A stretch of DNA of 64,000 nt from a virus (IMGVR_UViG_3300002835_000119:12727-76726), one strand, 5' to 3'. Counted from the first letter of the stretch, positions 388-48,867 are shown. Notes: generated from the sequence alone by a model not told the origin. Numbers and translations: made by a program.

Positions 388-1180
388 ACAAAAAGACTGC
401 GTAACTTGCGTCCCAACTAAAGACACTTGCTTGGTTATCTCAACGGATGTCTATTTTGTTGACTACGCCAAGACGCTATTAAAGAGCGTGAGCGCCAACT
501 ATAGCGGAGCTAACAAGCTAAAGGTCTTTGTCTTGTCTCCAGAAGACATTCACTACAGGGCTGCTGACTTTGTTTTCCCCAATCTAGACGTTGAGTTTAC
601 CTATCCCGAGAATGTTCGCCCGCACGAGGAAAGCGGCTTTGTGGGCAAGATGTATAAAAATAAGCAATACACCGGAACATCTCTATATCGATACTTTGTC
701 GGCAGCGTGTGCGTGGATTATCGAAAAGCCGTTTACATAGACGTTGACTGCATAATTGCCAGAGATATCCAGCCGCTGCTTGATTACAAGTTAGGAGACG
801 CCCCTATTGCTGCGTTCCCTGAGATCCAACTAAGCTTTCCAGAAAACGAGACATTTAGGGATACGTCAATCTTCAATAGCGGGGTCATGGTGATTAACCT
901 GGACTATTTCAGGGAAAACAACATAGAAGACGTTTTGATGGATGTTTCTATGAACTTTGATGATTGGCTTGGGTACGCAGACCAGGATGTCTTTAATGTT
1001 GTCTTTAAAAATAACTGGTCAGCGCTGAGCATTAATTTTAACTATTTAGCTAATATTTATAAATCTCTTCCGGTATTAGACCCTGTGGTTGTACACTTTG
1101 CTGGTAAGAGCAAACCATGGCTGTCAGGAACTCAGGACAGCAAATGGAAGCAGTTGTGGAGAATGTATCATGAGCGATAA
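374..1180 (+). CDS. glycosyltransferase family 8
   Basis: AVYIDVD (DxD), FNSGVMVINL, DQDVFN and VVHFAGKSKPW signatures. Confidence 0.92.
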   Translation: MPRIKQKDCVTCVPTKDTCLVISTDVYFVDYAKTLLKSVSANYSGANKLKVFVLSPEDIHYRAADFVFPNLDVEFTYPENVRPHEESGFVGKMYKNKQYTGTSLYRYFVGSVCVDYRKAVYIDVDCIIARDIQPLLDYKLGDAPIAAFPEIQLSFPENETFRDTSIFNSGVMVINLDYFRENNIEDVLMDVSMNFDDWLGYADQDVFNVVFKNNWSALSINFNYLANIYKSLPVLDPVVVHFAGKSKPWLSGTQDSKWKQLWRMYHER

Positions 1181-1838
1181 GCCGCACTACAACGTAGTGA
1201 TCGCTACGCCTGGTAAAGAGCTGCACCAGGGGTATGTAACTAGCCTTGTCGAAACTTTGCGCTGGCTAGGCGAGCAGGGACTGACTTACAAGTGGCTAAA
1301 CAAGTCTGGGTCGTTGATATCTACAACCAGAGAGTTGACTGCGCTGGACGCCTACAATCCAAACTGGGAAACGCGAGAGCTTGGCAGCGGGCAGTTTACC
1401 TATGACAAAGTCATCTGGATTGATTCTGACATCAGCTGGGGCATCGAGCAGTTCAAAGCACTGTGGGAGCACGAGCTAGACATTGTCGGTGGCATGTACC
1501 AAACTGCACCAGATGGACGCGTGGCAGTTGCAATGTTTGACGGGATTGGTCAGCCAACCGTTGTGCGAGAGCAAGACTTCATTTTGATAGACGCCCCTAT
1601 TGTTGAAGTATTCGGCGTCGGATTCGGCTTTGTGGCAATGAAGAGTGGTGTGTTTGAGAGGTGTGACAGGCCGTGGTTCTTGATGGAGAGAATTAGGTGG
1701 GCGCACTTGGATTTTGATTTGAACATTGGTGAGGACTATTCGTTCTGCATGAATGCAAGGCGTAATGGGTTTACTATTTACTTGGACACCAGAATTAAAG
1801 TGAAGCACCACAAGGAGATTATCTATGAGCTTAGGTAG
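1170..1838 (+). CDS. GT-A fold glycosyltransferase-like protein
   Basis: VVIATP, WIDSDI, GFGFVAM and GEDYSFC motifs; start moved to ATG 1170 overlapping the upstream gene end. Confidence 0.8.
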   Translation: MSDKPHYNVVIATPGKELHQGYVTSLVETLRWLGEQGLTYKWLNKSGSLISTTRELTALDAYNPNWETRELGSGQFTYDKVIWIDSDISWGIEQFKALWEHELDIVGGMYQTAPDGRVAVAMFDGIGQPTVVREQDFILIDAPIVEVFGVGFGFVAMKSGVFERCDRPWFLMERIRWAHLDFDLNIGEDYSFCMNARRNGFTIYLDTRIKVKHHKEIIYELR

Positions 1839-2574
1839 AAGCGTTACCGTGATAACTCCTACAACCGGCGCACCAGAATTAGTAGACGCCCTTATTAGTG
1901 TAGAAAACCAAGACTACGATGGGCCAATCGATCACTTAGTAGTTGTCGATGGTCAGGAGTTTTTGCCTAAGGTTATTGAAATGGTTGAAAGGTCTGGAAC
2001 GAATCCAACTGTTATGGTGCTCCCATACAACACTGGAGCCAATGGTTGGAATGGACATAGGGTTTACTCGGCTGTACCTGCGCTTGTAAATAGCGAATAC
2101 ATTGCTTTTTTAGATCAAGACAACTGGTATGAAGTAAATCATATTTCAAGTCTGGCTGCCAAACTTGACAATAATGAAAATCTAGAACTAGCTTTTTCAT
2201 TGAGATCTATCTACGAAAAAGATAGGACCTACGTAACAGATGATAATTGTGAGTCGCTAGGTCTTTGGCCTATTTGGAACTCAGGGGGGACCGGATTTTT
2301 AATTGACACGAGCTGCTTTTTCTTTAGAACGGCTTTTATAAGAAGAACCGGAAGAAAGTGGCTGCACCCCTACAATGCTGACGCCGTGTATTCAATGTCA
2401 TTAAAAACAGCATTTTCTGGCAAATACGAAACAACTGGGCTGTACACCTTAGGCTACAGACTAGGTGGGGGACCTAAATCCGTGAAAAAAGAATTTTTCT
2501 TAATTGGCAATATTTACTACATGGATATGTATCCGGGCGGTAACTATCCTTGGAAAAATTTTACTGGCAAATAA
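1825..2574 (+). CDS. glycosyltransferase family 2
   Basis: VTVITPT...SVENQDY...VVVDG...YIAFLDQDN. Confidence 0.88.
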   Translation: MSLGRSVTVITPTTGAPELVDALISVENQDYDGPIDHLVVVDGQEFLPKVIEMVERSGTNPTVMVLPYNTGANGWNGHRVYSAVPALVNSEYIAFLDQDNWYEVNHISSLAAKLDNNENLELAFSLRSIYEKDRTYVTDDNCESLGLWPIWNSGGTGFLIDTSCFFFRTAFIRRTGRKWLHPYNADAVYSMSLKTAFSGKYETTGLYTLGYRLGGGPKSVKKEFFLIGNIYYMDMYPGGNYPWKNFTGK

Positions 2575-2588
2575 GATAGCGTGAATAT

Positions 2589-3287
2589 ATGAAAAACAGT
2601 GTAACTTTTTATTGTAAAGATGCTTCAGAAAAATTTCTTGAGGAGTCTTCTGTAGATTTATTTATTGGCCATCCGCCCTACTATATGACTGAATTAGAGC
2701 TAAATGGTGGTGATCCAACCAAGCAAATGCAGAATGCCGAAAGCCTAGATCAATATCTAGAAAGACTGCTGCTTTCTTTTCTTCACATGGAAGCTGCTTT
2801 AAAAGAAGACGGCCATATGTTTATTGCTCTTGAGAATACCAGGCTGGGCCTTGGGATTTTGCCAAAAATATTTGATAAAACTAAACTACAACTCCAAAGC
2901 ATAAGACTATGGGACTACTCATCTAAATTTGATATGGGCGGCAACTCTACTGTTTTATTTGCACACTTTACCAAAAAACCTTGGAGCGCGGGGGATCGCC
3001 CGCAGGGACCATTTGTTCTTACTAACTCGTGGTCAGAGGCTACCGAAGAACTTAAGGATTATCACACAAACTATTCAACAGTCGGGGCTGCGCCGGAAGG
3101 TGTATATCGAGAAATGATAAAAAACTACTCCGAACCGGGAGATGTTGTTGCAGACATTTTTGCTGGATGTGGGACTGTCGGGGTGGTTGCTTTGCAGTTG
3201 GGTAGGAAGTTTGTCTATAATGATGTTTCTGAAGATAAGCTGCTTATTTCCCAAGTAAGAATTAAAGACTTGCAAGATGGTAAGTAA
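2589..3287 (+). CDS. DNA N4/N6-methyltransferase-like protein (beta order, HPPY motif)
   Basis: SVDLFIGHPPYY (motif IV variant) precedes DIFAGCGT (motif I) and LGRKFV. Confidence 0.8.
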   Translation: MKNSVTFYCKDASEKFLEESSVDLFIGHPPYYMTELELNGGDPTKQMQNAESLDQYLERLLLSFLHMEAALKEDGHMFIALENTRLGLGILPKIFDKTKLQLQSIRLWDYSSKFDMGGNSTVLFAHFTKKPWSAGDRPQGPFVLTNSWSEATEELKDYHTNYSTVGAAPEGVYREMIKNYSEPGDVVADIFAGCGTVGVVALQLGRKFVYNDVSEDKLLISQVRIKDLQDGK

Positions 3288-3477
3288 GAAAAGATCTTGG
3301 GCTAAGTCGCTGACTTGGCGGGTTGTGGCTATCGTGAGTACTTTTGGAATTGGGTACTTTTTAACTGGCAGCTTGACATTTGCCGCATCTTTGACTTTAA
3401 TATCTAATGTGATCAACTTTGTGCTGTACTACCTCCACGAGCGGATGTGGCTAAACATCCAGTGGGGAAAAGATTGA
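3277..3477 (+). CDS. DUF2061-like small membrane protein
   Basis: RSWAKSLTWR...YYLHERMW pattern. Confidence 0.8.
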   Translation: MVSKKRSWAKSLTWRVVAIVSTFGIGYFLTGSLTFAASLTLISNVINFVLYYLHERMWLNIQWGKD

Positions 3478-3478
3478 A

Positions 3479-3637
3479 ATGGCTAAAGACAAAAAAGTAA
3501 ACGCCCCTATTGTTGAAGAAAACGAAGAGCGAACAGCGATGTTTGGGTGGTGCAGCACTGGACATCATGATACGTGTGTAGTTAGGATTCCTAGGTACAA
3601 GTGTGCTTGCAAGTGTCATGGAGGCGAAGATGGATGA
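3479..3637 (+). CDS. small Cys/His-rich protein (52 aa, below ORF-track cutoff)
   Basis: Hand translation: ...GWCSTGHHDTC...KCACKCH; fills the gap between coupled genes. Confidence 0.6.
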   Translation: MAKDKKVNAPIVEENEERTAMFGWCSTGHHDTCVVRIPRYKCACKCHGGEDG

Positions 3638-3827
3638 GTTTGAGCGTGGAGTTCAGGCTGAGCGCAAACGAATCATGGAGGCGCTGCACCGATACAAAGC
3701 TGAAGGACTAGAAATAGTACAAGTGGCGTCCCAACCGGGGATCAATACAAGAGCAGTAAGAAGATTTGATACGGCTGAATTAATTGAAAGACTTTGGAAA
3801 GAACGTGATTTAAATGAACAAGAATAA
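3630..3827 (+). CDS. hypothetical protein
   Basis: GGAGG SD; FERGVQAERKRI motif resembles FEKGVATERERI in ORF 9612-9806. Confidence 0.65.
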   Translation: MDEFERGVQAERKRIMEALHRYKAEGLEIVQVASQPGINTRAVRRFDTAELIERLWKERDLNEQE

Positions 3828-3987
3828 ATGGGCATCAGTAATGATGGTTGATGGCATGGTGTTTGAGGGCATGATTGCAGAGGAAACGTCCTGGGGACTG
3901 TATCTGCATATAGGTGGCAACTCTGATCGGCTGTCGCTTTTTCCTTGGCACGCTATCGGTAGAGTCGTATATAAGCTAGACCTGTAA
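3814..3987 (+). CDS. hypothetical protein (57 aa)
   Basis: Hand-translated MNKNKWASVMMVDGMVFEG..., overlaps upstream gene end. Confidence 0.55.
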   Translation: MNKNKWASVMMVDGMVFEGMIAEETSWGLYLHIGGNSDRLSLFPWHAIGRVVYKLDL

Positions 3988-3996
3988 AATTTTACT

Positions 3997-4617
3997 ATGC
4001 CGATCACAATAGTTGAACAATTTATTAGTGAAGAAGATTGCAAAAGATATCTTAGCTTTTTAGAGCCTAAGGCCACACTGAGTGAACGTACTCAAATTAT
4101 GAATGCTTTAGGCTATCCGTCCTCGCTAGTTGCTTCTAAAATTGGCAAAGATACCGGTGTAATACCTGGGGAACAAAATGAAATCAACTTTGAAATAGGC
4201 GAACTATTCGAAAAAATAAAAGCTAAAGCCGAAGATGTTTTTGGGGAAGAGCTTGATTTATGTAATGCAAACTATCAAATGCTACCTAAAGGTAGTTCAA
4301 ATCCTATGCACTCAGATACCACGAAAGATGACGGCAGCCCTCTCGCTAAAGACGGATCCCCCGAGGAAGTCGAGTGGAGCGGTCTTTTGTATCTGAATAC
4401 CAATGGTAAAGACTTTGAGGGGGGAACTCTCTACTTTGAAAAGCAAGACTTAGAGTATTTCCCTAAAGCCGGAGACTTAGTGATTTTCCGTGGTGACATG
4501 GAGCACAGGCACGAAGTTCGAACAGTGTTGGAAGGCGAAAGAAAAAACCTAGTATTCTTCTGGGCAAAGCGTGGCAATGTGTCAGATGGTAATAGGTTTG
4601 ACGTAGATTATACTTAG
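3997..4617 (+). CDS. 2OG-Fe(II) oxygenase (prolyl-4-hydroxylase-like)
   Basis: HSD...LYLN..FEGG.LYF...HEV...R. Confidence 0.9.
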   Translation: MPITIVEQFISEEDCKRYLSFLEPKATLSERTQIMNALGYPSSLVASKIGKDTGVIPGEQNEINFEIGELFEKIKAKAEDVFGEELDLCNANYQMLPKGSSNPMHSDTTKDDGSPLAKDGSPEEVEWSGLLYLNTNGKDFEGGTLYFEKQDLEYFPKAGDLVIFRGDMEHRHEVRTVLEGERKNLVFFWAKRGNVSDGNRFDVDYT

Positions 4618-4621
4618 TGGC

Positions 4622-5242
4622 ATGACTGTACTAGTTAAAGAACGCTACATAAGTGAAGAAGACTGTAAAAAATATATAGAGTTTTTAGATCTTCACAGCT
4701 ACCCCGGGCAGGGCAAAATTATAAATGCTTTGGGGTATGAGTCCTCTTTAGCTGCGTCAAAAATAAATGAAGAGACTGGAGTCATACCTGGAGACTACGA
4801 TCCAGTAAACAAAAATTTGGGGGCTTTGTTTGAGCAAACAAAAAAGTATGCAGAAGAAGTTTTTGGATGCGAGCTAGATCTTTGTCAAGCAAACTATCAA
4901 AATCTTTTGACGGGTGCTTTTAATCCATTACATGCAGATGCAACTAGATTAGATGGCACCCCCATTCACGACAATGAAATTCCTCAAGAGCTGGAGTGGA
5001 GTGGCCTTATTTATTTAAATACTCAAGGGCAAGACTTTGAGGGTGGAGATATATATTTTCCAGAACTAAATTTTGTTTATTCCCCTCGGGCCGGGGATTT
5101 GTTGCTATTTAAAGGAGACGTCGAACATCAGCATGGAGTTCACGAAGTGACAGCTGGAAATAGAAAAAACATTGTTTTATTTTGGGCAAATAAAGGAAAT
5201 GTCTCGGGATTTAATTTCTTTGACGTTAATGATAAAAATTAA
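4622..5242 (+). CDS. 2OG-Fe(II) oxygenase, tandem paralog
   Basis: HAD...YLN..FEGG...HGV...R; colinear with previous ORF, both 206 aa. Confidence 0.9.
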   Translation: MTVLVKERYISEEDCKKYIEFLDLHSYPGQGKIINALGYESSLAASKINEETGVIPGDYDPVNKNLGALFEQTKKYAEEVFGCELDLCQANYQNLLTGAFNPLHADATRLDGTPIHDNEIPQELEWSGLIYLNTQGQDFEGGDIYFPELNFVYSPRAGDLLLFKGDVEHQHGVHEVTAGNRKNIVLFWANKGNVSGFNFFDVNDKN

Positions 5243-5244
5243 TT

Positions 5245-6729
5245 ATGATTTTAAGTGCTTGTATATTTGGGTATGGTCCTATAGGTAAAGCTGTAGTAGA
5301 CAAATTTACTTGTCTACCTGGCTACGGGAAAGACATAAGAATACACATAGTCTATGTAAAAAAGTTAAAAGACTTTCCAGAAGCTCAATTAAATAACCAA
5401 AACTTTTGGAAAATAAACAATAAATATTTCAATAATGAAAAATTAAGCATAACTATTGGTGACGACCACGAGTGGTTAAATTCAAGTGGATATATGGGGC
5501 ACGATGTTATTTTTGATTGTTCGGAGAAAGACGATGACTTTTCGCAAGAAATTAACGATCAACTTAATTTAAATAATAATTTTGTTTTATATAAATGTTC
5601 AAGCTTAGACTCTGTTGATGAGTTTATGGAGCCAATTTTAGATAGAATAACTAAACTCAGAAAATTAAAATTTAATGAAAAAATTAAAGAACAAATAGAC
5701 AGTTCGGTGTTTAGTGAAAAAAGTAACTACAAATTAACTTTGAATGCAAGAAAAACTTTTTATTCTGAGACAGAATACAACTCAAAAAAAATTATTGAAG
5801 ATGATCCAAAAAGAATATATGAAAATAATTCGAACGGGTTTAGATCAAAAAAAGAATTAGAAAAAACCCCCCTATTATTTGCTGGCTGCTCGGTAACATA
5901 CGGAGTGGGAGTCTCTATAGAAAACATTTGGGCGACTCAGGTGGCCAAACTTTTAAATTTAGATCATACAAATATAGGTAAGTCTGGTGCTTCTACTGGT
6001 CAAATAGTAAATTCTATTTTTAAATATGTAGAAACATATGGGAACCCGGAGTATCTTTTTTGTCTTTTCCCTGACTATAAAAGATTTTATGTGCCGGTAG
6101 ATGGTGTGTTTTATGCAGAAAAATTAAATAACAAAAATAAAGTTCCTACAAATATAGAAAAAGAAAGTAGTGAATCGAATAAAAAATTTTTTCAAACTGT
6201 ATATTTGGGAGTAGAAAAAGAAAAAAATAATAAATTAATTAAACTTCCATATGACTATAGAAAAGTTTTTTCCGATGATTTAGCAATATATGACGCAATG
6301 AAAAGCATTAGATATTTAGAGCAATACTGTAGGGCAGCGGACATAAAATTATTTTGGGCCACTTGGGATCCTGTATTTAACGGATTAGTTATAGACTCTC
6401 AGCTTGAGCCAGACACAAGATTTGAGAAATTTTTTAATTTATACGATCACAATTTTGACTATTCCAGAATTAAGCTATCAGAAAATAGTATTAAAGAAAT
6501 ATTTTTTGACAACTATGCTGATTTTGAGCTGTGCTTATCTAGTCACATTAATCCGGGGGTTGAATGCACCTGCGGAACTTTGTGCCATGCAGAAATTAAA
6601 AAAGAATTTCCTGATGAATATTTTGCAGGTACCGACTCTGCTCTTGGCCACCCCCACTTTGGGGCTCACTGGCACAGGCATGCTGCCGAAAGTTTTTATA
6701 ACGAATTTACTAGAGCAAAATCCCGGTAA
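5245..6729 (+). CDS. Rossmann-like N-terminus fused to SGNH-hydrolase-like domain
   Basis: IFGYGPIG at N-terminus; FAGCSVTYGVG, NIGKSGAS and C-terminal HFG..WH; very AT-rich. Confidence 0.6.
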   Translation: MILSACIFGYGPIGKAVVDKFTCLPGYGKDIRIHIVYVKKLKDFPEAQLNNQNFWKINNKYFNNEKLSITIGDDHEWLNSSGYMGHDVIFDCSEKDDDFSQEINDQLNLNNNFVLYKCSSLDSVDEFMEPILDRITKLRKLKFNEKIKEQIDSSVFSEKSNYKLTLNARKTFYSETEYNSKKIIEDDPKRIYENNSNGFRSKKELEKTPLLFAGCSVTYGVGVSIENIWATQVAKLLNLDHTNIGKSGASTGQIVNSIFKYVETYGNPEYLFCLFPDYKRFYVPVDGVFYAEKLNNKNKVPTNIEKESSESNKKFFQTVYLGVEKEKNNKLIKLPYDYRKVFSDDLAIYDAMKSIRYLEQYCRAADIKLFWATWDPVFNGLVIDSQLEPDTRFEKFFNLYDHNFDYSRIKLSENSIKEIFFDNYADFELCLSSHINPGVECTCGTLCHAEIKKEFPDEYFAGTDSALGHPHFGAHWHRHAAESFYNEFTRAKSR

Positions 6730-6749
6730 ACCTGTGCTAGGCTGTGGGC

Positions 6750-7088
6750 ATGGCACTAAATGACTTTGAGTATGTAGAAGATCCCTTGAAGGAGCCTTCG
6801 GGCTTTAGGGGGGCTTCGTTTTCCACCTTTGGGGAGGGGGATATGGAAATCTTTGAAGTCAGCATTGCCAAGGCCATCCTTAAGAAGCAAGAGGCGCTTA
6901 ATGCGATAGACGCCCTTACTGATGCAGCTGGAGAATCCTGGTATGAACTGGGAGAGAAGATGGCTGAAAAAAGATTTTTAGGAATACTTGACAAGTTTGA
7001 GGAGAACCTGCTAGATTCTGAGGAGGACGCCAAAATGACGATCCACCTAATAAGGAAAATGGTAGAGACTGATGGACAAGAAGAATAA
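6750..7088 (+). CDS. hypothetical protein
   Basis: ORF with TAGGCT -10 six nt before ATG (leaderless). Confidence 0.65.
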   Translation: MALNDFEYVEDPLKEPSGFRGASFSTFGEGDMEIFEVSIAKAILKKQEALNAIDALTDAAGESWYELGEKMAEKRFLGILDKFEENLLDSEEDAKMTIHLIRKMVETDGQEE

Positions 7089-7639
7089 ATATTCCACTGA
7101 TCAGCTAGCTGAGATCTTTGCAAAGATCGAGGTAGCAAAGATGCTAACCGACATGGGCGGAAAGCTAGCAAAAGAAGCAGCCAACGATTTAGCTTTTTTC
7201 AAAATCACCAATGAGATTCCTGACAGGGACGAAAAATAATGGACGCCCTTATGCGGGAACTATTCGGATCTGCCTGGGCCTACTATGTTGCTTTTGCAAT
7301 TTTAGGTATTTGGTTTGCGATTGAAAGATGGGGAAAGAGGAAGTAATGATTAAGTATTTATGGAAAAAGATCGATTGGACCGTAGTTCAAGTTGTGATAT
7401 TAGTTGGAATGCTGCCAGTGATGTTGGTTATTGGTGCATTGTTCTATCAACTATTTAGCGCAAAATATAGATAAAATAAATTTATGTTTCGCATAAATTT
7501 TAGACATTACCCCCCAAGTCGATTTGCAGTAGAGAAGCATTACGGGATATGCTTTGAGTGGCACCCTAAAAGAAAAGGCGTAGACTTCTTTTGGGGTAGG
7601 CACGTATATACGTTTTGGGTAGGAAGAAGTTACTAATAA

Positions 7640-7879
7640 ATGAGTGAAAAAATTTTGCACTGGTGCGAGGTGTGCGACACCGAAGCTGAGCTGACATCTG
7701 AGGAGGGGTTCAGTCGGGGCTGGGACTTCCCGCCGAGGATGGGTGCTTGGGGAATTGTGTCTCCCCGCACTTGCCCAAAATGTTTTATAGATAAAACTGC
7801 TTGGTTTGCATTAGCCAGTAAAGAGACGTTGACTGAAAGACACCTGCTAACAATTGAAAGAATTAGGGGAGAGCTGTAA
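7640..7879 (+). CDS. small Zn-finger-like protein
   Basis: CEVC...CPKC. Confidence 0.65.
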   Translation: MSEKILHWCEVCDTEAELTSEEGFSRGWDFPPRMGAWGIVSPRTCPKCFIDKTAWFALASKETLTERHLLTIERIRGEL

Positions 7880-8187
7880 TGAAGCGTCACGAATCTTTTA
7901 ATGAACTTGAAGAGGCCATAAAAATTGGTGAATACAGAAAGCGTCAGCACAATAAAAAGAAAGCAAAAGTGAATAAGGAAGATTGGCAGTGCGGCGACTG
8001 CGGGACTGTCTACAGTTATAAAGTGCAAAGTTGCACCAGCCCTGAGCTAGATCGATGGGCTCTTAGAAAGTTTCAAGAGGGCTACGAGTACGGGGTATCT
8101 GTAGCTGAAAAAGAAGTTGGCAGACTAAAGGATGCAATACAGACTGTTGAAGACTTTGGTTTTGAAGTAGTGTTTAGTAGGAGATAA
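7879..8187 (+). CDS. hypothetical protein
   Basis: TAATG coupling; CGDC motif. Confidence 0.65.
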   Translation: MKRHESFNELEEAIKIGEYRKRQHNKKKAKVNKEDWQCGDCGTVYSYKVQSCTSPELDRWALRKFQEGYEYGVSVAEKEVGRLKDAIQTVEDFGFEVVFSRR

Positions 8188-8338
8188 ACGTGAATCCAGA
8201 AGATATTTCAAAGATGATAGACGCCGTCACTCAGTATGGTGAGATTATGGGCGGTATGAGAAATCAGCTTATAGCCCAGGGGTTTAGCGAGGAAATGGCC
8301 GAGCAGTTAGTGTTGGAAGTTATTAGAAAGGCAACCGC

Positions 8339-8680
8339 ATGAGTTTTGAGAGATTTGGCAGCTCGGATGTTTACATCTACGAGCACGTGGGTGGATTTAT
8401 TGAGTGCTGTGGTTGCTCTTTGGCACTACCTGATGGGGACGAGATTTTTGGGTTTACCTCTCTAAAAACTCCCCGGGAAGCTTTGTCACACTTAGATTTG
8501 CATGAAGAAATCGGGGATGATATCGGAGGAGCTCGCCGGAGGATTGAGAAAGAGTACGAAGATTTAGACGCCCCTATTGAACCTTACGTTGAAGATCCTG
8601 AAGTGGCCAAAAAGCGAAGGGCTAGAATGAGGGAGTTATTTCCAAATAGCCGGTTTAGGGATGTCAGTAACGGAGAATAA
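8339..8680 (+). CDS. hypothetical phage protein
   Basis: GAAAGG SD; MSFERFGSSDVYIY..GGFIECCGC. Confidence 0.7.
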   Translation: MSFERFGSSDVYIYEHVGGFIECCGCSLALPDGDEIFGFTSLKTPREALSHLDLHEEIGDDIGGARRRIEKEYEDLDAPIEPYVEDPEVAKKRRARMRELFPNSRFRDVSNGE

Positions 8681-8908
8681 ATGCCAATAATGACAAGAGA
8701 AGGCCATTGCGAGTTTGATGGCTGCGAGAAACAGATTAAAGCAAAGCGGCTTTGTCAGTATCACTATCACAAGGCTTTGTATCCAAGGAACTGCGATAGG
8801 CCTAATGTCATTCTAAAAAAGAAAAAGGTAGATACTCTTAACGGAGCAGAACTCTGGGCGTTAATTGAAGCAGACCTAAAAAGCGGAAAGTTAAAACTAA
8901 ATAGGTAA
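8681..8908 (+). CDS. small Cys/His Zn-binding protein
   Basis: CEFDGC...LCQYHY. Confidence 0.6.
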   Translation: MPIMTREGHCEFDGCEKQIKAKRLCQYHYHKALYPRNCDRPNVILKKKKVDTLNGAELWALIEADLKSGKLKLNR

Positions 8909-9062
8909 CCACTGTGACTACTTGGATCGTTTACACTAAAAAAGAGAATTCTCCTCTCTGGAAGAGCGACAACAAAAACGACTTGGATATAATAGTTCGG
9001 AAATTGCCAGATGCTATTAGCACTAAGCTTTATGTGGCAGAAGCTAAAAAACAGGAGAAAAA

Positions 9063-9341
9063 ATGAAACTATTAGTTAACCACTGCTCGCACGGGTTTAC
9101 TTTGTCTGAGCGTCAGAAGACTCTTTTCCCGGAGCTGCAGACTGTTCCATACATGAAGGTGTCAGACGTAAACCGAGCTGACGAGCGTCTTATTGCTTCG
9201 TTTGAGGCTGGAGACAACCGTGGCGATGGCGGATCAACTCTAGCTATCGTAGAGATTCCAGACGGCGCTCGCTTTAGAATCATCTCTCGAGATGGATATG
9301 AAGAAGTTGTTTGGACTATGGGAGAGCTTCACAGCGCATAA
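9063..9341 (+). CDS. hypothetical phage protein
   Basis: AGGAG SD, 92-aa ORF. Confidence 0.7.
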   Translation: MKLLVNHCSHGFTLSERQKTLFPELQTVPYMKVSDVNRADERLIASFEAGDNRGDGGSTLAIVEIPDGARFRIISRDGYEEVVWTMGELHSA

Positions 9342-9619
9342 TGTCCGCTAAATATCTTGGCAAAAATTCCTGGGTAGATGACTACAATCATGTAATTGTA
9401 AACGTCCATGCAAGTAATAAGTGCAAGAATGACTACTGCACTCTCCATAACCCCTCTGATCATCATATGTTAGGATTTCCTCAGAGGTGGAGGCAAGATC
9501 GCCATATTATGGAAAGAATGTGCCCTCACGGTGTTGGACATCCGGACCCAGACGATATTGCTTTAAATACTGTTCATGGGTGCGACGGGTGCTGCGTTAA
9601 GGAGATATTTAATGGCTAA
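9341..9619 (+). CDS. Cys/His-rich phage protein
   Basis: CTLHNPSDHHM...MERMCPHGVGHPDPD...HGCDGCC. Confidence 0.75.
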   Translation: MSAKYLGKNSWVDDYNHVIVNVHASNKCKNDYCTLHNPSDHHMLGFPQRWRQDRHIMERMCPHGVGHPDPDDIALNTVHGCDGCCVKEIFNG

Positions 9620-9806
9620 GTTTGAAGGAACCCCAGAGGAAATGGCTGCATTTGAAAAAGGTGTAGCCACTGAGCGGGAACGAATTCTAAAGATTTTAAG
9701 AAAGTTTCACCAGACTTTTGGGTCAGGGGATATTGCTGAATCGACAACAATGATGGAAACCAAGTACATGTACAACTTCATCATTGACGCCAGACCAGTT
9801 AAATAG
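9612..9806 (+). CDS. hypothetical protein
   Basis: AAGGAG SD, overlaps previous stop. Confidence 0.6.
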   Translation: MAKFEGTPEEMAAFEKGVATERERILKILRKFHQTFGSGDIAESTTMMETKYMYNFIIDARPVK

Positions 9807-9824
9807 CTTGAGTTAGTAGCCAAA

Positions 9825-11261
9825 ATGAAAATTCTTGGCATAAATGAGACAACGCACGATGCTGCAGTTTGTCTTATTGAAAATGGCGAAGTTCTATTTG
9901 CTGGTCATGCCGAGCGTTACAGCAAAGAAAAGAACGACTGGTTCACTAACGATGCTCTTATAGCAGATGCCCTTACTTATGGGACCCCCGACAAGATTGC
10001 CTACTACGAGGACTACTGGCTAAAGAAGCTAAGGATTGCTAGGCATGGTGGGTTGGGGGGAGGAAAACCATACTTTAAGTCGAGCCGATTGCTTAGGGGA
10101 ATTCCAGTAAAAGATTTTAAGCACCACCAGTCTCATGCTGCTGCTGGGTATTACACGTCCAACATGGCAGACGCCCTTATTGTCGTGCTAGACGCCATCG
10201 GAGAATTCCAGACTTCCACTGTGTGGGTGGGGGAGGGCGACAAGATTAACCTAGTCTGGGAGCAAAAATATCCAGTTAGCTTCGGTCTTTTTTACTCTGC
10301 TTTCACCAAACTAATTGGTCTTAAGCCAAATGAAGAAGAGTACATCATGATGGGTATGGCAGCCTATGGTGATGCCAATAGATATTATGAAAAAGTCAGA
10401 CAATATTTTCCAGTCTTTGATCGTCAAAAATATAACTTCCACTCTGGCATTATTGACTGGAAAGAGCCGGTAGAAGGTCAGGCTAGATTTGATTTAGCAG
10501 CTGCAGTACAAAAAGTATTTGAGGATCGTCTCATGGAATTCATGGGGTTTGCAAAAAGTATTACTAGAAAAAAGAATCTAGTCTTTATGGGCGGCTGTGC
10601 TTTGAATAGCAAAGCTAACACCCTGCTGCGGAACATATTTAAAAATGTTTGGATCATGCCTAATCCAGGGGACGCTGGGTCGGCTTTAGGGGCTGCTGCA
10701 GCTTTGTATGGCAAGCATTTGAATTGGCAGGGGCCGTACTTAGGTCATGGGGTTGGGGGAGACTATCCAGTAGAGAAAATACTAAACGCCCTTATTGTCG
10801 ACAAGATAGCGCCAGTAGCATCTGGTAGAGCTGAGTATGGTCCGAGGGCATTGGGAAACCGAAGTATCTTGGCGGATCCGAGAGATCCTGATATTAAAGA
10901 CAAGGTAAACCTAATCAAGAAGCGGGAGTTGTTTAGACCGTTTGCTCCGGTGGTTATGGAGGAACATGCTAGCGAGTGGTTTGACATGAACTACACTTCG
11001 CCTTACATGCAGTACACGCCTAGATGTCTTAAGCCAGAGTTAATTCCTAGTGTGGTCCACGCCGACGGAACTGCCAGGGTCCAGACTGTAACTGCCCGGC
11101 AGCATCCCGGTCTATATCAGGTATTACAGAAGTGGTATAGCCTTACCGGTGTACCAGTGCTATTAAACACTAGTTTGAATATTAAAGGGCAGCCTATAAT
11201 AAACGACGCTAGTGATGTGAAAGAATGGACCAAATATTATGGCAGGGAGATCATAAGCTAA
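9825..11261 (+). CDS. O-carbamoyltransferase (NodU/CmcH family)
   Basis: ILGIN..HDAA, HHQSHAA, MGMAAYG, GGCALN, EYGPRALGNRS, KKRELFRPFAP, HADGTARVQTV, LLNTSLN. Confidence 0.95.
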   Translation: MKILGINETTHDAAVCLIENGEVLFAGHAERYSKEKNDWFTNDALIADALTYGTPDKIAYYEDYWLKKLRIARHGGLGGGKPYFKSSRLLRGIPVKDFKHHQSHAAAGYYTSNMADALIVVLDAIGEFQTSTVWVGEGDKINLVWEQKYPVSFGLFYSAFTKLIGLKPNEEEYIMMGMAAYGDANRYYEKVRQYFPVFDRQKYNFHSGIIDWKEPVEGQARFDLAAAVQKVFEDRLMEFMGFAKSITRKKNLVFMGGCALNSKANTLLRNIFKNVWIMPNPGDAGSALGAAAALYGKHLNWQGPYLGHGVGGDYPVEKILNALIVDKIAPVASGRAEYGPRALGNRSILADPRDPDIKDKVNLIKKRELFRPFAPVVMEEHASEWFDMNYTSPYMQYTPRCLKPELIPSVVHADGTARVQTVTARQHPGLYQVLQKWYSLTGVPVLLNTSLNIKGQPIINDASDVKEWTKYYGREIIS

Positions 11262-11355
11262 TGATTATTCTTTACTACCTCGAGAAGGCGTATAAGAAAG
11301 TAAAAAACTTTATATTTCCAAAGAAAAACAACGATAAAGACAGGTTTATATACTG

Positions 11356-11598
11356 ATGTCGTATTTTGACAAATTTGATCGGGAGATTGTTTTGGACCTA
11401 GATGAAGCAACGAAGCTTGCAGTAAAGGTTGTGATGAAGGAGGGGGAGCTACAATTTAGGGAACTTTTGATAGACGTTCTTAAGAAAGAAATAGCAGACG
11501 CTCGGGGGGCCCTTAAAGTTGAGCCAAATCTTGAGTGGGAAGATGGCCTCGAATACTGCATCCATCTGCTCAAAAACATGGATTCAGACGCTAGCTAG
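11356..11598 (+). CDS. hypothetical protein
   Basis: ORF in co-oriented run. Confidence 0.6.
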   Translation: MSYFDKFDREIVLDLDEATKLAVKVVMKEGELQFRELLIDVLKKEIADARGALKVEPNLEWEDGLEYCIHLLKNMDSDAS

Positions 11599-11625
11599 AA
11601 TAGTTAAAAAGACTTAGGAGAATTT

Positions 11626-11979
11626 ATGTGCGGTGGAAACTGCGGTTGTGGCAGCTCTTTTGACGAAGAGGGCCTATTTGAAAAACCAGCTAAGCCTAGG
11701 GTTAATCCGGCTACGTTAGAAGAGGACAGCAAAGCTTCTTTCAATACTGGGTACGCCGAAGGATTTAGACACGCCAGGGAAGTTTTCTGGGAGGAGTTCC
11801 AGATCAAAGCTAGCGACGCAAAGATGGTTGCAAAGTATTTGGCTGAGGAAGATCCTGGTGCCCTAGAAGTTGACGGCTTAAGAATTGTTGCTGCTACCTA
11901 TCTTCATGCTTCAGACGTAATTATTAGGGACCGCAGAGAATACCCTGGCTACATCGAAAAAGACGAAAAGCTTTTTTAG
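11626..11979 (+). CDS. hypothetical protein
   Basis: AGGAG SD; N-terminal CGGNCGCG. Confidence 0.65.
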   Translation: MCGGNCGCGSSFDEEGLFEKPAKPRVNPATLEEDSKASFNTGYAEGFRHAREVFWEEFQIKASDAKMVAKYLAEEDPGALEVDGLRIVAATYLHASDVIIRDRREYPGYIEKDEKLF

Positions 11980-12014
11980 TAGACGCCCACGTGGGTAAGT
12001 ATTAGTGTGTAGAT

Positions 12015-15198: not shown

Positions 15199-15232
15199 AA
15201 AAGCCCCCGATGTTTTGTCGGGGGTTTCTCTT
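15199..15232. terminator. bidirectional intrinsic terminator
   Basis: AAGCCCCCGA/TCGGGGGTTT hairpin between convergent genes. Confidence 0.8.
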
Positions 15233-15247: not shown

Positions 15248-16162
15248 TTAATACTTGTTTGAGTTGATTGCTCCACGGAGGGCTGCAATAGTCTGGGGCC
15301 CCCATGAGCCATCAATACGACCTTCGTAGTCAGCGCGAGCAACTAGGCGCTTTTGGACGCCCTTATAGCTGTTAGTTCCAGGATCTCCATCAATTGGACC
15401 TGAGTATCCGTGGGAAGCAACTGAGCGCTGAATGGCCATCCAAGTTTGCTTTCCTGGGTTGCCATCGATTGCGCCAGTGTAGCCGTGATCGCGCTTTAGA
15501 ATTTCTTGGAACTTCTTCCAGTCGTCAACAGTTAGTTCTTTCGACTCATCGGCAACTAAGGGCTTTACTTCAGTAGCAACTGGTTCTGCTGCCTTTGGAG
15601 CTTCGCCTTTGATGATTGCTTTAGCAGTCTTCTTGTCAACCTTTGGGGCAACTGCGCCTCCGCTGTTAGCGATGATTGCTTTCTTAAGATCGGACTTTGA
15701 AGTGGTTGGACCAAAGACGTCCTTAACTGCCTTGCCAAGAGTTGCATGCAAATGAGCCCCACTTGAAGCATTGCCCGTGTTCCCGATCGTCATGCCGTGA
15801 GTGACATCACCAGCTGTTACTTTGTCGCCGACTTTAACGCTTAGCGCAATCTCTGGTCCGTGAGCGCCTTTGCAATTAATGCCGCACTTTTTGCAGGCTA
15901 GGTGGCAATATCCGATAAACCAAATCTTGCCGTCTTTATCTGCGGCGGTCTGAACTACGACCCAGCCTAACACTTTGCTCCATTGTACAAGCTTGATAGT
16001 TCCATCTGCGATAGCAGGAATTAAAGTCTTACCTTTGTTCGAACCTGGAGGTGCCCAGTCGGTGCCAGAGTGTGGCTGCATCTTGTTCTTGCGACGGTAG
16101 GCAGAGAGAGTGCCGTACTCGCCAGTGATTGTCTTTTCAGGAAATGGCATCAACCAAGTCAT
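15248..16162 (-). CDS. M23 peptidase endolysin with peptidoglycan-binding repeats
   Basis: HSGTD and HLH zinc motifs; C-terminal Y.G.IDG.PG..T repeats. Confidence 0.9.
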   Translation of the reverse strand: MTWLMPFPEKTITGEYGTLSAYRRKNKMQPHSGTDWAPPGSNKGKTLIPAIADGTIKLVQWSKVLGWVVVQTAADKDGKIWFIGYCHLACKKCGINCKGAHGPEIALSVKVGDKVTAGDVTHGMTIGNTGNASSGAHLHATLGKAVKDVFGPTTSKSDLKKAIIANSGGAVAPKVDKKTAKAIIKGEAPKAAEPVATEVKPLVADESKELTVDDWKKFQEILKRDHGYTGAIDGNPGKQTWMAIQRSVASHGYSGPIDGDPGTNSYKGVQKRLVARADYEGRIDGSWGPQTIAALRGAINSNKY

Positions 16163-26440: not shown

Positions 26441-26705
26441 TGAGTGGTTTAAAGTGGGGGAAAGTGGAGTCGTTCTTAATAAATGTCCAAAACAGGAGCG
26501 CTCTCCCTCTCCACGCGCAAAAAAACTTTCCAAAAATAATCACCAACTTTTCACGAATGTACAATTGATGCCATGTCAAGTAACATTAGCGGCGTCCAGG
26601 AAACTCAGTTTCCCTCAAATACCCTACAATTGACGGAGACGGCCCTGTCACAGTCCTCTCCCCAGTTGGCAGGGTCGTCCTCTGCTTTCATTAGGGGCGT
26701 TTAAC

Positions 26706-27677
26706 ATGGCCGACACCCCAATTAACCTATCCGACCTCGTAATCGACCTCCCAGTAGCGGCACGCGCCGATTTAAGCGAGCTTGGCATCGAAGAACTCGA
26801 TAGGGGCGTTTGCGAGGACACCTTCCAGAACCGCGCCCTCCTCAGAAGATCCAAGCTTATTTGGGAAACCGTTTACACCCAGGACGGATCTTCGAGCGGC
26901 CTGCTCAAAGTAAGGTCCGCCGATTCAACCCGCGAGCGCCGGATCCAATCGCTTTCTGAAAAACGCCCGATCTTGGTTAACCCAACCGACAATAACTCAG
27001 ACTACCTAACCGGCCTGGATCTAATCGCCGAGGAGTCAACGGATTACCTGGTTCCACCTTGGGTTCTGGGCGCGACTCGTAAGTGGTTGAAGGAACAAGA
27101 AAACGGTGGACCGGCGTCTGACAAACGCCAGCCTGCCGCCCTGCCTCACCGCTGCCGCCAAGTTAAGTTCGACGGAATCCGCTGCATGCTATGGGCGTCT
27201 GGCGCACCAAAGGATGACGGCCTGTGCCGAATACACCTACGCAATCTCAAACACAAGACCTCCGACGACATCGAACGCGCCCGTGAAAAGTTGATGCAAG
27301 CCGCGCCCTTCGCTGTTGACAAACTCGAAGAGCTCATGGAATACGCTGAGAGCGAACCGGTCAAACTAAAAGCCGCAACCGAGATCCTCGACCGAGCTGG
27401 GGTTAGGGGCGGCTACGAAGTTGACTCTAACCTTAACGTTGAAGTTCGGCCTGCCGCGGAGATCATTGCTGAACGGCTTGACCGATTGGCGGCGGGTGCT
27501 ATACAGGCCGCGGCACGGCTCGCGCCCGATAACTCTGTGATAGACGCCGAGGTTGTGGTCGAAGATGTCAAGACCCCCTTGACAGAATCTGCTTTGATCA
27601 ACGGACCTACTCAAACTTTTAACGAATCATTAAAAGATGAAGAGCGGCCCGCGCTCGTTAACCAGGAAGATAAATAA
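26706..27677 (+). CDS. putative terminase small subunit-like protein
   Basis: C..C..C.IH zinc knuckle followed by A..AVDKL.EL....ESE.VKLKAATEILDRAG. Confidence 0.5.
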   Translation: MADTPINLSDLVIDLPVAARADLSELGIEELDRGVCEDTFQNRALLRRSKLIWETVYTQDGSSSGLLKVRSADSTRERRIQSLSEKRPILVNPTDNNSDYLTGLDLIAEESTDYLVPPWVLGATRKWLKEQENGGPASDKRQPAALPHRCRQVKFDGIRCMLWASGAPKDDGLCRIHLRNLKHKTSDDIERAREKLMQAAPFAVDKLEELMEYAESEPVKLKAATEILDRAGVRGGYEVDSNLNVEVRPAAEIIAERLDRLAAGAIQAAARLAPDNSVIDAEVVVEDVKTPLTESALINGPTQTFNESLKDEERPALVNQEDK

Positions 27678-43346: not shown

Positions 43347-43358
43347 TATTTTTTACTT

Positions 43359-45115: not shown

Positions 45116-45436
45116 GGCAGACTAAAAGCAACCCCTAGCCCAAGCGGTTAGGGGTTTGTTTTTATTTGTGGTAAGCAACTTATGGATCATAAATCCTGTT
45201 ACCAAAATGTTATAAAAATTTATGCGAAACACTTGACAAATAAAACTCTGCCGTTATGCTTATTACATAAGCCAAAAGGCTTACGGAGAAAGGAAAAAAG
45301 AAATGACACTAGAGGTAACCCTAAGCAATGGAACAACCATCTATCCAAGCTTTGACCCAGCACACCTAGAGGGTGTCGCTTATTACTACAATGAGCAATA
45401 CCGGATTGGGTTTGTAAAGTCTTGGCGGGTAGTCAA

Positions 45437-45631
45437 ATGAAAGCTCTTTCGGCGGTGGCAGTAGTTGGCGGTGTTGTTGCCACGGTGTTTGCGGTTGATG
45501 GCTATTACCTACTAATGGACAATGACCTAAGCGAGTTTGGCTTTGCGGTGTTGCCCTGGATTATTGGTTTAGGCTATGCGGTTTGCGGTTTAGGGATTGT
45601 GACTAAGTTAGTGGCAACCTATCGCCGATAG
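45437..45631 (+). CDS. small membrane protein
   Basis: Two hydrophobic helices; terminator 45648-45683. Confidence 0.6.
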   Translation: MKALSAVAVVGGVVATVFAVDGYYLLMDNDLSEFGFAVLPWIIGLGYAVCGLGIVTKLVATYRR

Positions 45632-46168
45632 TCTTTGCGGTTTGCGGTAAGCCCCTAGGTATCCCCTAGGGGTTTTACTTTTTACTTTTGATAAACAATG
45701 ATCATTAGAGTTTTTATTGCGGACCCCGCCCCCAAACAAGCAAAATAAATCTTGACCGGTAATTTCTTTCTGCCTTGGATTATTTTTTAGGTGATTAGTT
45801 TTGATTACCCCTCTGCGGTAAATCAAAAAATGCCCCTGGTTAGCCCTGTAATGCCCCTAGAACTGATTGACCCTCACAAGGATACCAGCTTACAATTCTG
45901 ACCCCTTAGAACCCAACCTAGCCTCAATTAGACAATAGACAAGCAACCTAACTAATGAATTGTTTTTTGATTAGCAAATCAAACAACATAAACAATTACC
46001 CCTCTCCAAACAAATAATTTTTCCCAAAATCTCAAGAAGCAATGCTTGATGACCGAACCCCCGTCAATTTAGGAAACAAATTTCACACGTTCCAAAACAT
46101 AGCGCTGCCCTCTCACCCGTCAAAAGCAGTTGACGTTAAGGTACTAGTTTTTATCTAAGTGCAGACGT

Positions 46169-47388: not shown

Positions 47389-47569
47389 GCCACCGAGTAT
47401 AGCACCCCCCTTAATTTAAAAATTACCCCCTCCCCCCTTTTAAAAACGCCCCTATTACCGGCTACCCAATTTTTAGAAAAAATGTCCAAGGGTACTAAAA
47501 CTTAAATTAATGTTCAAAAAAGGGCGTTTCTCTCCCTAGTACCATAAAACAGCACGTAAAATAGAACCT

Positions 47570-48067
47570 ATGTCTCGAAGAACAGCACGTGGACAGCAGC
47601 TCCCCCCTCACGAGGTGGAGTTCCTAAACACGCTCAAGGGAGAGCAGCGCATAGAGCGCGTAGCGGCGTTATTTAACGCAGGGTGGTCCCTCCAGACCAT
47701 CGGGGATTCGCTACAACCGAGGCATCCAAGATCGACTGTCCGATCCTGGGTCTTGAAGGCTAAGGGCCTGAATTTAACAGACGCCCCTATTCCGACTCCA
47801 AGACTAAAAACCCCAGAAGGCGGGTACCAGAAGGTACGCCCTGAGTCCCCGGGAATCCCACAAGGTGACCTAGACCAGATCCGCCATCTTTCCCCCCTGG
47901 CTCGCGGCTATCGTTCACGGATGGCTTCGACGTCAGCTCCCGCCGTTGCAAACCAGCGTCTAACAGACCTATGCAAGCGGCTCCACCAAAATAACGTCTC
48001 GGTTCGTGAACTGGCCGAAGCAGCGGGCGTCACCTATCGCGCTATGTATAAGCGCCTCTTTCTATAA
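47570..48067 (+). CDS. double-HTH DNA-binding protein
   Basis: GWSLQTIG and SVRELAEAAGVTYRAM; related to 49657-50235. Confidence 0.75.
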   Translation: MSRRTARGQQLPPHEVEFLNTLKGEQRIERVAALFNAGWSLQTIGDSLQPRHPRSTVRSWVLKAKGLNLTDAPIPTPRLKTPEGGYQKVRPESPGIPQGDLDQIRHLSPLARGYRSRMASTSAPAVANQRLTDLCKRLHQNNVSVRELAEAAGVTYRAMYKRLFL

Positions 48068-48075
48068 AATCCAAC

Positions 48076-48105
48076 TTGACAAACAGTAGACGCCCCTACT
48101 AATCT
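48076..48105 (+). promoter_or_regulatory. sigmaA promoter with GACGCCCCTACT in its spacer
   Basis: TTGACA-18-TAATCT. Confidence 0.7.
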
Positions 48106-48156
48106 GTACCCCACAACTAAATAAGACCAAGTACTAACGCAAGGAAAGGTAGGTCG

Positions 48157-48867
48157 ATGTTAGAGAAACTAAGCAAAAAGCAAAAGGATGGGTTCTATAC
48201 CATTCTCATTTTGACTGGACTATTTGTGTCTGGTTCAACTCCGATGTACGACGTGAACTCGTCTTCAGCGGAGGCAGCCGGTTCGATGTTTGCGCCAATA
48301 ATAAAGCCTCAACCACTCGAGCAGACAAACAGGGTCCCGCTTCAGCGGGAAGCTGACATACTTGTCCAAATCCCAAACATTGGGAGACTAACAAACAAAA
48401 TTGACGAGCTAGAGTCAACTGTTGAAGCTAAAGAGTTCACCATCACTGCGATGAAAGAACAAAAAGAAATTGAACTTGCTCAACAGCGGGAAATCTATGT
48501 TTCTATGGACCAGGCCCTCATCGAGCTGTCCGAGTATGTAGGAAAAACCCCGTGGGGGTTCGGCGGAGACGACCCCAAACGCTGGGATTGCTCTGGACTT
48601 ACGATGTGGTTCTACAAAACTTACCGAGGTATAGACCTAGAGCACTCTGCCACCAAACAGATGCGCGGAGGCATTAAAGTAGACGCCCCTATTCCAGGTG
48701 ACCTAGTTGCTTTCAAGTACGGACGTAACAAAGATGCTTTCCACATCGGTGTGTACATGGGTGGCGGTATGTTTATCCACTCCAAGAACTCCAGAGCCGA
48801 TACGGTATTGGAGCGCGTCGAGGATTTTGCCTCTAAAAATATTACGGTTGTGTATATCCGCTACTAG
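48157..48867 (+). CDS. NlpC/P60 peptidoglycan endopeptidase, membrane-anchored
   Basis: YVGKTPWGFGG...WDCSGL...PGDLV...HIGVY.GGG.FIHS. Confidence 0.92.
   Translation: MLEKLSKKQKDGFYTILILTGLFVSGSTPMYDVNSSSAEAAGSMFAPIIKPQPLEQTNRVPLQREADILVQIPNIGRLTNKIDELESTVEAKEFTITAMKEQKEIELAQQREIYVSMDQALIELSEYVGKTPWGFGGDDPKRWDCSGLTMWFYKTYRGIDLEHSATKQMRGGIKVDAPIPGDLVAFKYGRNKDAFHIGVYMGGGMFIHSKNSRADTVLERVEDFASKNITVVYIRY

Follow-up and report, generated by a model that had tools for sequence, protein, structure and literature searches.

What kind of signal is the 11-nucleotide (nt) word RACGCCCYTAY, which recurs along one strand of a viral genome, mostly inside unrelated genes, and which protein would read it? 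The stretch concerned, hereafter the window, comprises 64,000 nt (bases 12727-76726) of the 76,726-bp virus contig IMGVR_UViG_3300002835_000119; positions refer to the window unless marked as contig positions. The motif is real, strongly polar, conserved and under nucleotide-level selection. On balance, we favour the reading that it is an asymmetric operator or roadblock site of a 165-amino-acid (aa) protein with two helix-turn-helix (HTH) domains encoded in the window, and thus an analogue, not a detectable homologue, of the stoperators of mycobacteriophage L5.

Because the complete relatives in IMG/VR measure 152-154 kb, the 76.7 kb contig appears to be about half of a large (~150 kb) freshwater actinophage genome. 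Its portal protein shares 71% identity with the one of Actinomycetia phage DSL-LC01 (129 kb, lake origin) and 59-62% with those of Microbacterium phages with genomes of 186-195 kb, and near-identical DNA was found in freshwater (lake, river) metagenome runs from 15 studies. Megablast of window positions 1-12000 against GenBank phages gave no match; relatives were instead reached via proteins and the motif. Eight related contigs are labelled G000-G007, G000 being the window's own, and an IMG/VR search with the 165-aa protein returned 32 loci, or 33 with the window. A scan of IMG/VR with a 15-mer gave 20 loci, 16 of them with a single copy, probably by chance, and four (L006, L013, L016 and L021, from three contigs) with several copies, oriented 9:0, 8:0 and 0:7.

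A polar word under nucleotide-level selection

RACGCCCYTAY has 15 exact matches in the window (14 on the + strand and one on the − strand), where 0.14 are expected, and none of 100 dinucleotide shuffles reached 15; the whole contig holds 15 + copies and one − copy. Under an order-3 Markov null, 0.1 exact copies are expected, one-mismatch copies number 11 (4 +, 7 −) against 5.4 expected (null maximum 13), and two-mismatch copies number 85 against 67 expected, which is background frequency. What stands above background is the exact copies, together with a few one-mismatch copies whose flanks also match, and nothing else. All 14 exact + copies (797 to 48682) and the exact reverse copy at 26800 of a preliminary description of this DNA were recovered, and the variant that it gave at 9966 is a one-mismatch copy (GATGCCCTTAC) that is exact at the orthologous position in two relatives; the weaker copies that it gave at 11982 and 21257 and its reverse copies at 29361 and 43948 have at least two mismatches and fall into the background class.

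Alignment of the copies (15 in the contig, with 102 non-redundant contexts from relatives) extends the word to a site of ~21 bp, AAwwTArTA-RACGCCCYTAY-TG, or AAAATAGTA-GACGCCCCTAT-TG when written out with the core GACGCCCCTAT. The site consists of an A/T-rich 5′ side, a core invariant over 11 nt, then T and often G, with conservation from −9 to +12; the base after TATTG is not conserved. It shows no dyad symmetry. The motif was also considered as a promoter element and rejected, no −10- or −35-like element lying at a fixed distance from it in the 102 non-redundant contexts.

Twelve of the contig's 15 + copies fall in frame 0 of an open reading frame (ORF) on the + strand, read as GAC GCC CCT/CTT ATT and encoding D/N-A-P/L-I as the preliminary description had said of most copies; for nine of them that ORF is the longest at the place. 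The other three are two intergenic copies (47445, 48089) and one that is antisense in a minus-strand endolysin-like gene (15356), as likewise described before. The frame preference arises because the preferred TA before the core gives TAG or TAA in one of the other frames and K/R-R-P-Y in the remaining one. As copies are also found in intergenic and antisense positions, and in relatives in two other reading frames (G001 11983, G004 27904), peptide selection is excluded as the cause on the evidence of their placement. In a 1.6 Mb Actinomycetota metagenome-assembled genome (MAG), three copies occur on a related phage-like contig and three elsewhere, against nine for a control word, so the word is not enriched there, which speaks against a host signal.

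Codon usage does not account for the count either. With synonymous codons shuffled within genes 500 times in a greedy set of 157 ORFs, the mean is 0.57 copies and the maximum 3, against eight sense copies observed, all in one reading frame. The same ORFs encode 14 D/N-A-P/L-I/M/T peptides, and motif codons are used in eight of the ten that lie inside the two motif-rich regions described below and in none of the four outside. A finer view comes from 24 two-HTH genes whose proteins are 53-90% identical to that of the window. At conserved Ala, Pro, Arg and Leu columns the codons are scrambled (the top codon has a share of 0.32-0.76 at conserved Ala and Pro columns), whereas the motif codons are fixed: GAC in 23/23, GCC in 21/23, CCT in 21/23, and ATT in 18 plus ATC in 3 of 21. 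These are the only frozen synonymous positions in the gene, which means that the site in the linker of the protein is kept as DNA or RNA. Orthologues of the carbamoyltransferase gene were also compared, as the preliminary description had suggested for genes with the motif: some of the six have it, at three positions; in those of G003 and G006, which lack any copy, other codons encode D/N-A-L/I-I-like residues at these places, so sites were gained where the protein already tolerates them.

Orientation is nearly uniform across relatives. Over the eight contigs the ratio of major to minor orientation is 69:3 (G000 15:1, G001 9:0, G002 8:0, G003 7:0, G004 11:2, G005 5:0, G006 10:0, G007 4:0), and in six of them (G000-G004 and G006) 2/60 major-orientation copies are antisense to their ORF. 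In the same six contigs, 12/60 lie at codons 2-5 of an ORF of at least 50 aa, in about seven different genes, and G003 has three consecutive genes with a copy directly after the start codon. The orientation flips at non-coding gaps that had been proposed for the window come down to one exact reverse copy and a one-mismatch neighbour 110 bp away, and the exact copy is absent from the closest relative.

The copies of the window genome form two clusters. One follows a single long rightward transcription unit of auxiliary genes, which begins where transcription diverges near contig 10.2 kb and ends at a terminator (window 15201-15227), and the other has four copies within 1.25 kb around the two-HTH gene (47570-48067). 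Sense copies are absent from the 25 kb of small rightward genes that separate the clusters, from the minus-strand block and from the structural genes. The complete 154 kb relative G004 is similarly organized, with eight of its 13 copies at 8.1-27.9 kb, three at 73.2-73.8 kb and two reverse ones elsewhere. Since the more distant G005 and G007 keep only three copies around the two-HTH gene and one or two others, the cluster at this gene is apparently the ancestral one, and the copies in the auxiliary operon seem to have arisen by expansion within the window's subclade.

Mosaic junctions were considered as an origin of the copies, and this idea was dropped, most copies lying well within alignment blocks between the contig and G001-G004. 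In the same alignments, blocks begin at the motif where a serine recombinase gene starts (227 aa, contig 10814-11497, locus L029, just upstream of the window). This gene opens with ATG plus motif and ends beside a degenerate, one-mismatch copy at contig 11459, directly after which the contig carries a 975-bp insertion, with an APH-like kinase gene, relative to G002.

The two-HTH gene and its linked promoters

The association with the two-HTH gene holds across relatives. The 32 loci around this gene contain 89 copies in gene orientation and one in reverse, with at least one copy in 30 of them, and the copies recur at set places relative to the HTH start: 31-148 nt upstream (18/32 loci), +72, +207 to +231 and +518 to +549; seven loci have one more copy, at 1038-1154 nt from the start. 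Both double-HTH genes of the window had been proposed as sources of the binder. This tight linkage favours the one at 47570, while the second (49657-50235) encodes a distant paralogue, 22% identical, and has no motif copy nearby in the window.

A promoter of the form TTGACA-17/18-TAnnnT lies directly 3′ of the HTH gene in all 33 loci. In the window it reads TTGACA (48076-48081), 18 nt and TAATCT (48100-48105), with the copy at 48089 in the spacer as previously described; over the 33 loci, the spacer motif is exact in 14, with one mismatch in two and with two mismatches in two. Its distance from the −35 hexamer is 7-8 nt in most loci; one locus has no gap, and the degenerate copies stand 5-6 nt away. 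Another near-consensus promoter, in G003, has a copy immediately upstream of its −35 hexamer, and in several relatives a copy stands 7-8 nt 5′ of a TAnnnT (−10) hexamer that itself lies 6-7 nt before the ATG of the HTH gene, which suggests that the gene's own transcript may be leaderless and self-controlled. Such variable placement over core promoter elements has the look of repressor operators rather than that of promoter elements.

The AlphaFold model of the 165-aa protein (24-sequence alignment, mean predicted local distance difference test score 84.5) shows one helical domain at residues 13-63, a second at 98-164 and, between them, a linker of low confidence in which DAPIP lies. With this model Foldseek gave no match in the PDB at E ≤0.001, and the ESM Atlas gave generic HTH clusters and nothing else; a profile search of PDB sequences found the Sleeping Beauty PAI subdomain alone (E 0.04), and PHROGs and Pfam gave weak generic HTH matches, none to a terminase small-subunit or Q family.

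If protein and site belong together, they might be expected to change together, and a few variants point that way. DSL-LC01 encodes a 38-44% identical HTH homologue between its large terminase and portal genes and contains no ACGCCCYTAY. What it has instead is GGCGTCCCTAT, three times exactly and once with one mismatch, always on the + strand, where an exact 11-mer is expected by calculation ~0.06 times in 129 kb; one copy lies 45 nt before the start of the HTH homologue, the others lie in transglycosylase and methyltransferase genes, and the copies fall in frames 2, 2 and 0. In another relative (G009), the internal and the promoter copy both read GACGCCACTAT, and the protein has DATI instead of DAPI. 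Microbacterium phage Pumpernickel has ACGCCCGTT three times, all on + and only in the 6.5 kb at the HTH and terminase genes of its 186 kb genome; this word was rejected as a counterpart, because three copies of a 9-mer are not significant. In the same phage (L078, 25614-34105), the homologue, gp76, has the gene of a 787-aa 'terminase' on one side and that of a 211-aa 'terminase, ATPase domain' protein on the other.

Two other observations concern this locus. The 5′ leader of the gene at 48157 (48106-48156) contains a block of ~26 nt, GTACTAACGCAAGGAAAGGTAGGTCG, that hardly varies among relatives although their neighbouring proteins share no more than 60-70% identity, and a related word, AAGGTACTAA, reappears 5′ of the HTH gene, in DSL-LC01 as well. 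The Logan contigs of one DNA run from a lake end at either side of this gene, and one of low depth lacks 47886-48125 (region 47586-48126), which suggests strain-level variation at the HTH locus.

A proposed roadblock model, known systems and rival explanations

What is established is the site itself, with its polarity, clustering, position in promoters and nucleotide-level selection, and its link to the HTH gene across relatives; from this we infer that the 165-aa protein is the binder, that it acts as a monomer and that it represses or blocks transcription. Each of the protein's domains would probably contact one half of the ~21 bp site. Bound at the promoter of its own gene, the protein would prevent initiation, resulting in auto-regulation, and in many relatives it could, from the spacer of the strong downstream promoter, occlude RNA polymerase and so control the next gene. 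Further copies, co-oriented with transcription along the rightward auxiliary operon (glycosyltransferases, carbamoyltransferase, methyltransferase, oxygenases and the small serine recombinase), would form a polar roadblock to elongating RNA polymerase. Sites would have been written into coding sequence because the genes are tightly packed, at places where the protein tolerates D/N-A-P/L-I and often at codons 2-5, an enrichment that fits the logic of a roadblock in a genome with almost no intergenic space.

No tyrosine integrase (PF00589) was found in two complete relatives, and the sole recombinase, the 227-aa serine enzyme, is missing from the complete genome G005, which keeps its five motif copies. 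The phages thus look lytic, so that the site probably serves to time gene control within the lytic cycle and is unlikely to act in lysogenic immunity. A search of 185,579 species genomes gave one match, on a 46.6 kb MAG contig that is not established as a prophage.

In PMC9283540, the repressor of L5 and TipsytheTRex is a monomer with two DNA-binding domains that recognizes an asymmetric 13-mer; its sites number more than 20, lie in promoters and between genes, and have an orientation that is tied to transcription and needed for repression. In that paper, polar roadblock repression by a monomeric two-domain repressor is described for Cluster A mycobacteriophages alone. The present system shares with the Cluster A stoperators (L5 gp71, TipsytheTRex) an asymmetric ~13 bp site that needs its flanks, many copies per genome, sites in promoters and within transcription units with an orientation that follows transcription, and a small polypeptide with two DNA-binding domains, here the candidate binder as modelled. 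The stoperator analogy of the preliminary description is thus retained, and its alternative of KOPS (FtsK-orienting polar sequences) or Chi fails on the two clusters. There are also differences. No gp71-type chain (N-terminal HTH plus Stoperator domain) is among the Foldseek, VIA-align and profile matches listed; L5 stoperators lie in short intergenic spaces, whereas most copies here are inside ORFs; L5 sites are genome-wide, whereas those here are limited to the regulator locus and one operon; and L5 is of the temperate type, whereas these ~150 kb phages look lytic. KorB of plasmid RK2, structures of which are among the structure matches listed for the 165-aa protein, is a dimeric ParB-family CTPase with 12 palindromic OB operators; in contrast, the word studied here is polar and asymmetric, and its candidate binder lacks a ParB N-terminal domain. 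The start-associated sequences of Cluster K mycobacteriophages are reportedly asymmetric 13-bp repeats, oriented with genes, that lie just 5′ of start codons and include the ribosome-binding site. They resemble the present copies as asymmetric actinophage repeats oriented with genes and tied to gene starts, but the copies here follow the start codon or lie deep in genes and are linked to an HTH gene.

Several points weigh against an operator and roadblock function. The partnership of protein and motif rests on gene-site linkage and on few independent motif variants. The downstream promoter is kept without the motif in 15/33 loci, and the promoter at the head of the auxiliary operon has no copy within one mismatch. 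The exact copy at 15356 is antisense to its gene and lies beyond the terminator, the enrichment at codons 2-5 also fits an RNA-level signal, the homologue in Microbacterium phages sits between terminase genes, which hints at a role in packaging, and in phages that look lytic a silencing role of the immunity type is not obvious.

Among the alternatives, it is unlikely that the two-HTH protein is a positive factor, such as an activator or a λ Q-like antiterminator, that loads at the promoter spacer, with intragenic copies as loading or pause sites. The Q binding element of phage λ lies in PR′, between the −35 and −10 of the late promoter, and the layout here is comparable: a regulator gene lies directly 5′ of a strong promoter, the site falls between the two hexamers of that promoter, −35 and −10, and a conserved leader and a long late operon follow. 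However, a promoter with perfect TTGACA and TAnnnT hexamers needs no activator, the position of the site varies (0 or 5-8 nt after the −35 hexamer, or directly upstream of it), downstream of the promoter there is a weak hairpin (48185-48206) but no convincing terminator, and the loci that keep the promoter without the site would be hard to explain. A Q-like factor would likewise not be expected to have copies that follow start codons or lie within its own gene.

It is quite improbable that the word acts in RNA, as the target of a small RNA, an RNA-binding protein or an endoribonuclease that controls translation or decay. Nearly all copies are sense to their transcripts, those at codons 2-5 fall in the interval where pairing blocks translation initiation, and at one orthologous place in two relatives a terminator hairpin has the word as its 5′ arm. 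On the other hand, the motif repeatedly lies between the −35 and −10 of a promoter, where it would not have to be part of a transcript; no conserved complementary sequence was found, the reverse copies being sporadic and not conserved; no copy matches an Rfam family; and the conserved gene linked to the motif encodes an HTH protein.

We regard it as very unlikely that the two-HTH protein is a small-terminase-like packaging protein, with the copies around its gene as a pac-type region and the distant ones secondary. Packaging is directional, pac sites lie inside or beside the small-terminase gene in P22 and SPP1, a 37-42% identical homologue directly follows a terminase gene and precedes the portal gene in Pumpernickel, Cece, Big4, Zooman and A3Wally, and the position in DSL-LC01 is similar. 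Nevertheless, the family searches gave no terminase small subunit, the model has no oligomerization domain, the two-HTH gene of the window lies 8.7 kb upstream of the large terminase gene, 8-11 further copies stand 45-65 kb away in one operon, and the placement in promoter spacers points to transcription.

There is little to recommend the copies as strand-specific nick sites, as in T5, phiKMV-like phages and phage tf, or as crossover sites of the small serine recombinase. A single DNA strand carries them all, even the one within a minus-strand gene, and the recombinase gene begins with ATG plus motif in five of six contigs (in G002, the sixth, the motif is at codon 3) and frequently contains another copy, but G005 retains copies without the recombinase, the site lacks dyad symmetry, directly repeated crossover sites would delete genes, the recombinase of DSL-LC01 is encoded on the strand opposite its sites, and nicking does not predict clustering at a regulator gene and in promoter spacers. 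A genome-wide KOPS/Chi-type signal or a by-product of codon or peptide bias is barely credible: strand bias is strong and most copies encode D/N-A-P/L-I, but G004 has 11/13 copies in two regions spanning ~20 kb and only two others, both reverse, in ~130 kb, no skew switch is supported at the non-coding gaps, the two clusters rule out a genome-wide signal, and the codon-shuffled null and the copies in intergenic, antisense or other-frame positions speak against bias.

With the operator and roadblock reading preferred, a wider and decidedly tentative proposal can be considered: a widespread group of large, apparently lytic freshwater actinophages may have independently evolved a stoperator-like system, in which a two-HTH monomer unrelated to gp71 recognizes a polar ~21 bp site written into codons, including those of its own linker, so that a regulatory code dictates D-A-P-I, in many cases at codons 2-5, and oriented roadblocks shut off an auxiliary glycosylation operon at a set time in lytic growth. 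If so, this would be a second, unrelated case, from phages that are themselves uncultured, and the polar roadblock strategy would be convergent and not tied to lysogeny. It would also be a natural case of a DNA-binding code overlaid on a protein code with measurable synonymous constraint, and a compact, orientation-dependent pair of protein and site that is a candidate genetic tool for actinobacteria. Microbacterium phages in culture carry homologues, so the question is open to bench testing.

Coordinates and neighbouring features

Motif copies and associated elements, in window positions
Feature	Position	Strand	Context
Motif copy GACGCCCCTAT	797..807	+	Frame 0 (DAPI) in GT8 glycosyltransferase gene 374-1180
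Motif copy	1590..1600	+	Frame 0 in glycosyltransferase-like gene 1170-1838; kept in G002
Motif copy	1885..1895	+	Exact match
Motif copy AACGCCCCTAT	3500..3510	+	Codon 8 of small conserved ORF (NAPIVEE...); orthologous copies in G001, G002, G004, G006
Motif copy	6909..6919	+	Frame 0 in small + ORF 6744-7088; kept in G002
Motif copy	7242..7252	+	Immediately 3′ of ATG (ATG GAC GCC CTT ATG)
Motif copy	8567..8577	+	Frame 0 in ORF 8339-8680
One-mismatch copy GATGCCCTTAC	9966..9976	+	Carbamoyltransferase gene; exact at same position in G001 and G004
Motif copy	10170..10180	+	Exact match
Motif copy (NALI)	10785..10795	+	Carbamoyltransferase gene; exact in G001, G002, G004; similar residues with other codons in G003, G006
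Bidirectional terminator	15201-15227	both	Copy at 15356 lies just past it
Motif copy	15356..15366	+	Antisense in minus-strand endolysin-like gene 15248-16162; not exact in relatives
Sole exact reverse copy	26800..26810	−	Antisense in gene 26706-27677; not kept in G002; probably incidental
Intergenic motif copy	47445..47455	+	Divergent control region, 125 nt 5′ of two-HTH gene
Two-HTH gene, 165 aa	47570..48067	+	Two HTH domains and linker; candidate motif binder
Motif copy in two-HTH gene	47780..47790	+	Linker D71-A72-P73-I74; exact in 26/31 related loci covering this part
Sigma-70/sigma-A-type promoter TTGACA-18-TAATCT	48076..48105	+	Predicted; serves gene 48157-48867
Motif copy in promoter spacer	48089..48099	+	Operator position; exact in 14/33 loci, 1-2 mismatches in 4, none in 15
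Motif copy	48682..48692	+	Frame 0 in gene 48157-48867 (hydrolase / minor-tail-like domain)
Cargo genes (catalase-peroxidase, ferredoxin-family, carbamoyltransferase, epimerase), coordinates listed together	50458-52656, 53578-54237, 9825-11261, 16201-17100		

The window encodes a large terminase, a portal, endolysin-like proteins, several glycosyltransferases, a carbamoyltransferase, DNA methyltransferases, 2-oxoglutarate (2OG)-Fe(II) oxygenases, a catalase-peroxidase and a ferredoxin-like protein. Unusual phage cargo includes the catalase-peroxidase of 732 aa, the ferredoxin-family protein, the carbamoyltransferase, which is of the NodU/Nol type, and a nucleotide-sugar epimerase, and the contig also has at least six glycosyltransferase-like and about six 2OG-Fe(II) oxygenase-like genes. 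Just 5′ of the large terminase gene lie a full-length transfer-messenger RNA (56416-56748; Rfam 124.7 bits; tag peptide GTQSAFALAA) and a tRNA-Asn(GTT) (55575-55647). Among the Logan contigs of four public runs, those from RNA libraries cover parts of 40-60 kb at low depth.

The hairpin mentioned above for two relatives occupies G001:C1:78-130 and G004:C1:12237-12290, with the motif in its 5′ arm (GCCCCTAY...GGTAGGGGC, then a T-rich run), and other terminators of the window (45130-45156 and 45649-45675) likewise have CCCCTA/TAGGGG stems. The leader at 26625-26700, upstream of the gene 26706-27677, is conserved far above its surroundings (95% over 57 nt in G002, 80% in G004) and contains TACAAT followed by a 10-bp stem (GACGGCCCTG...CAGGGTCGTC), indicating that it may be a structured 5′ untranslated region.

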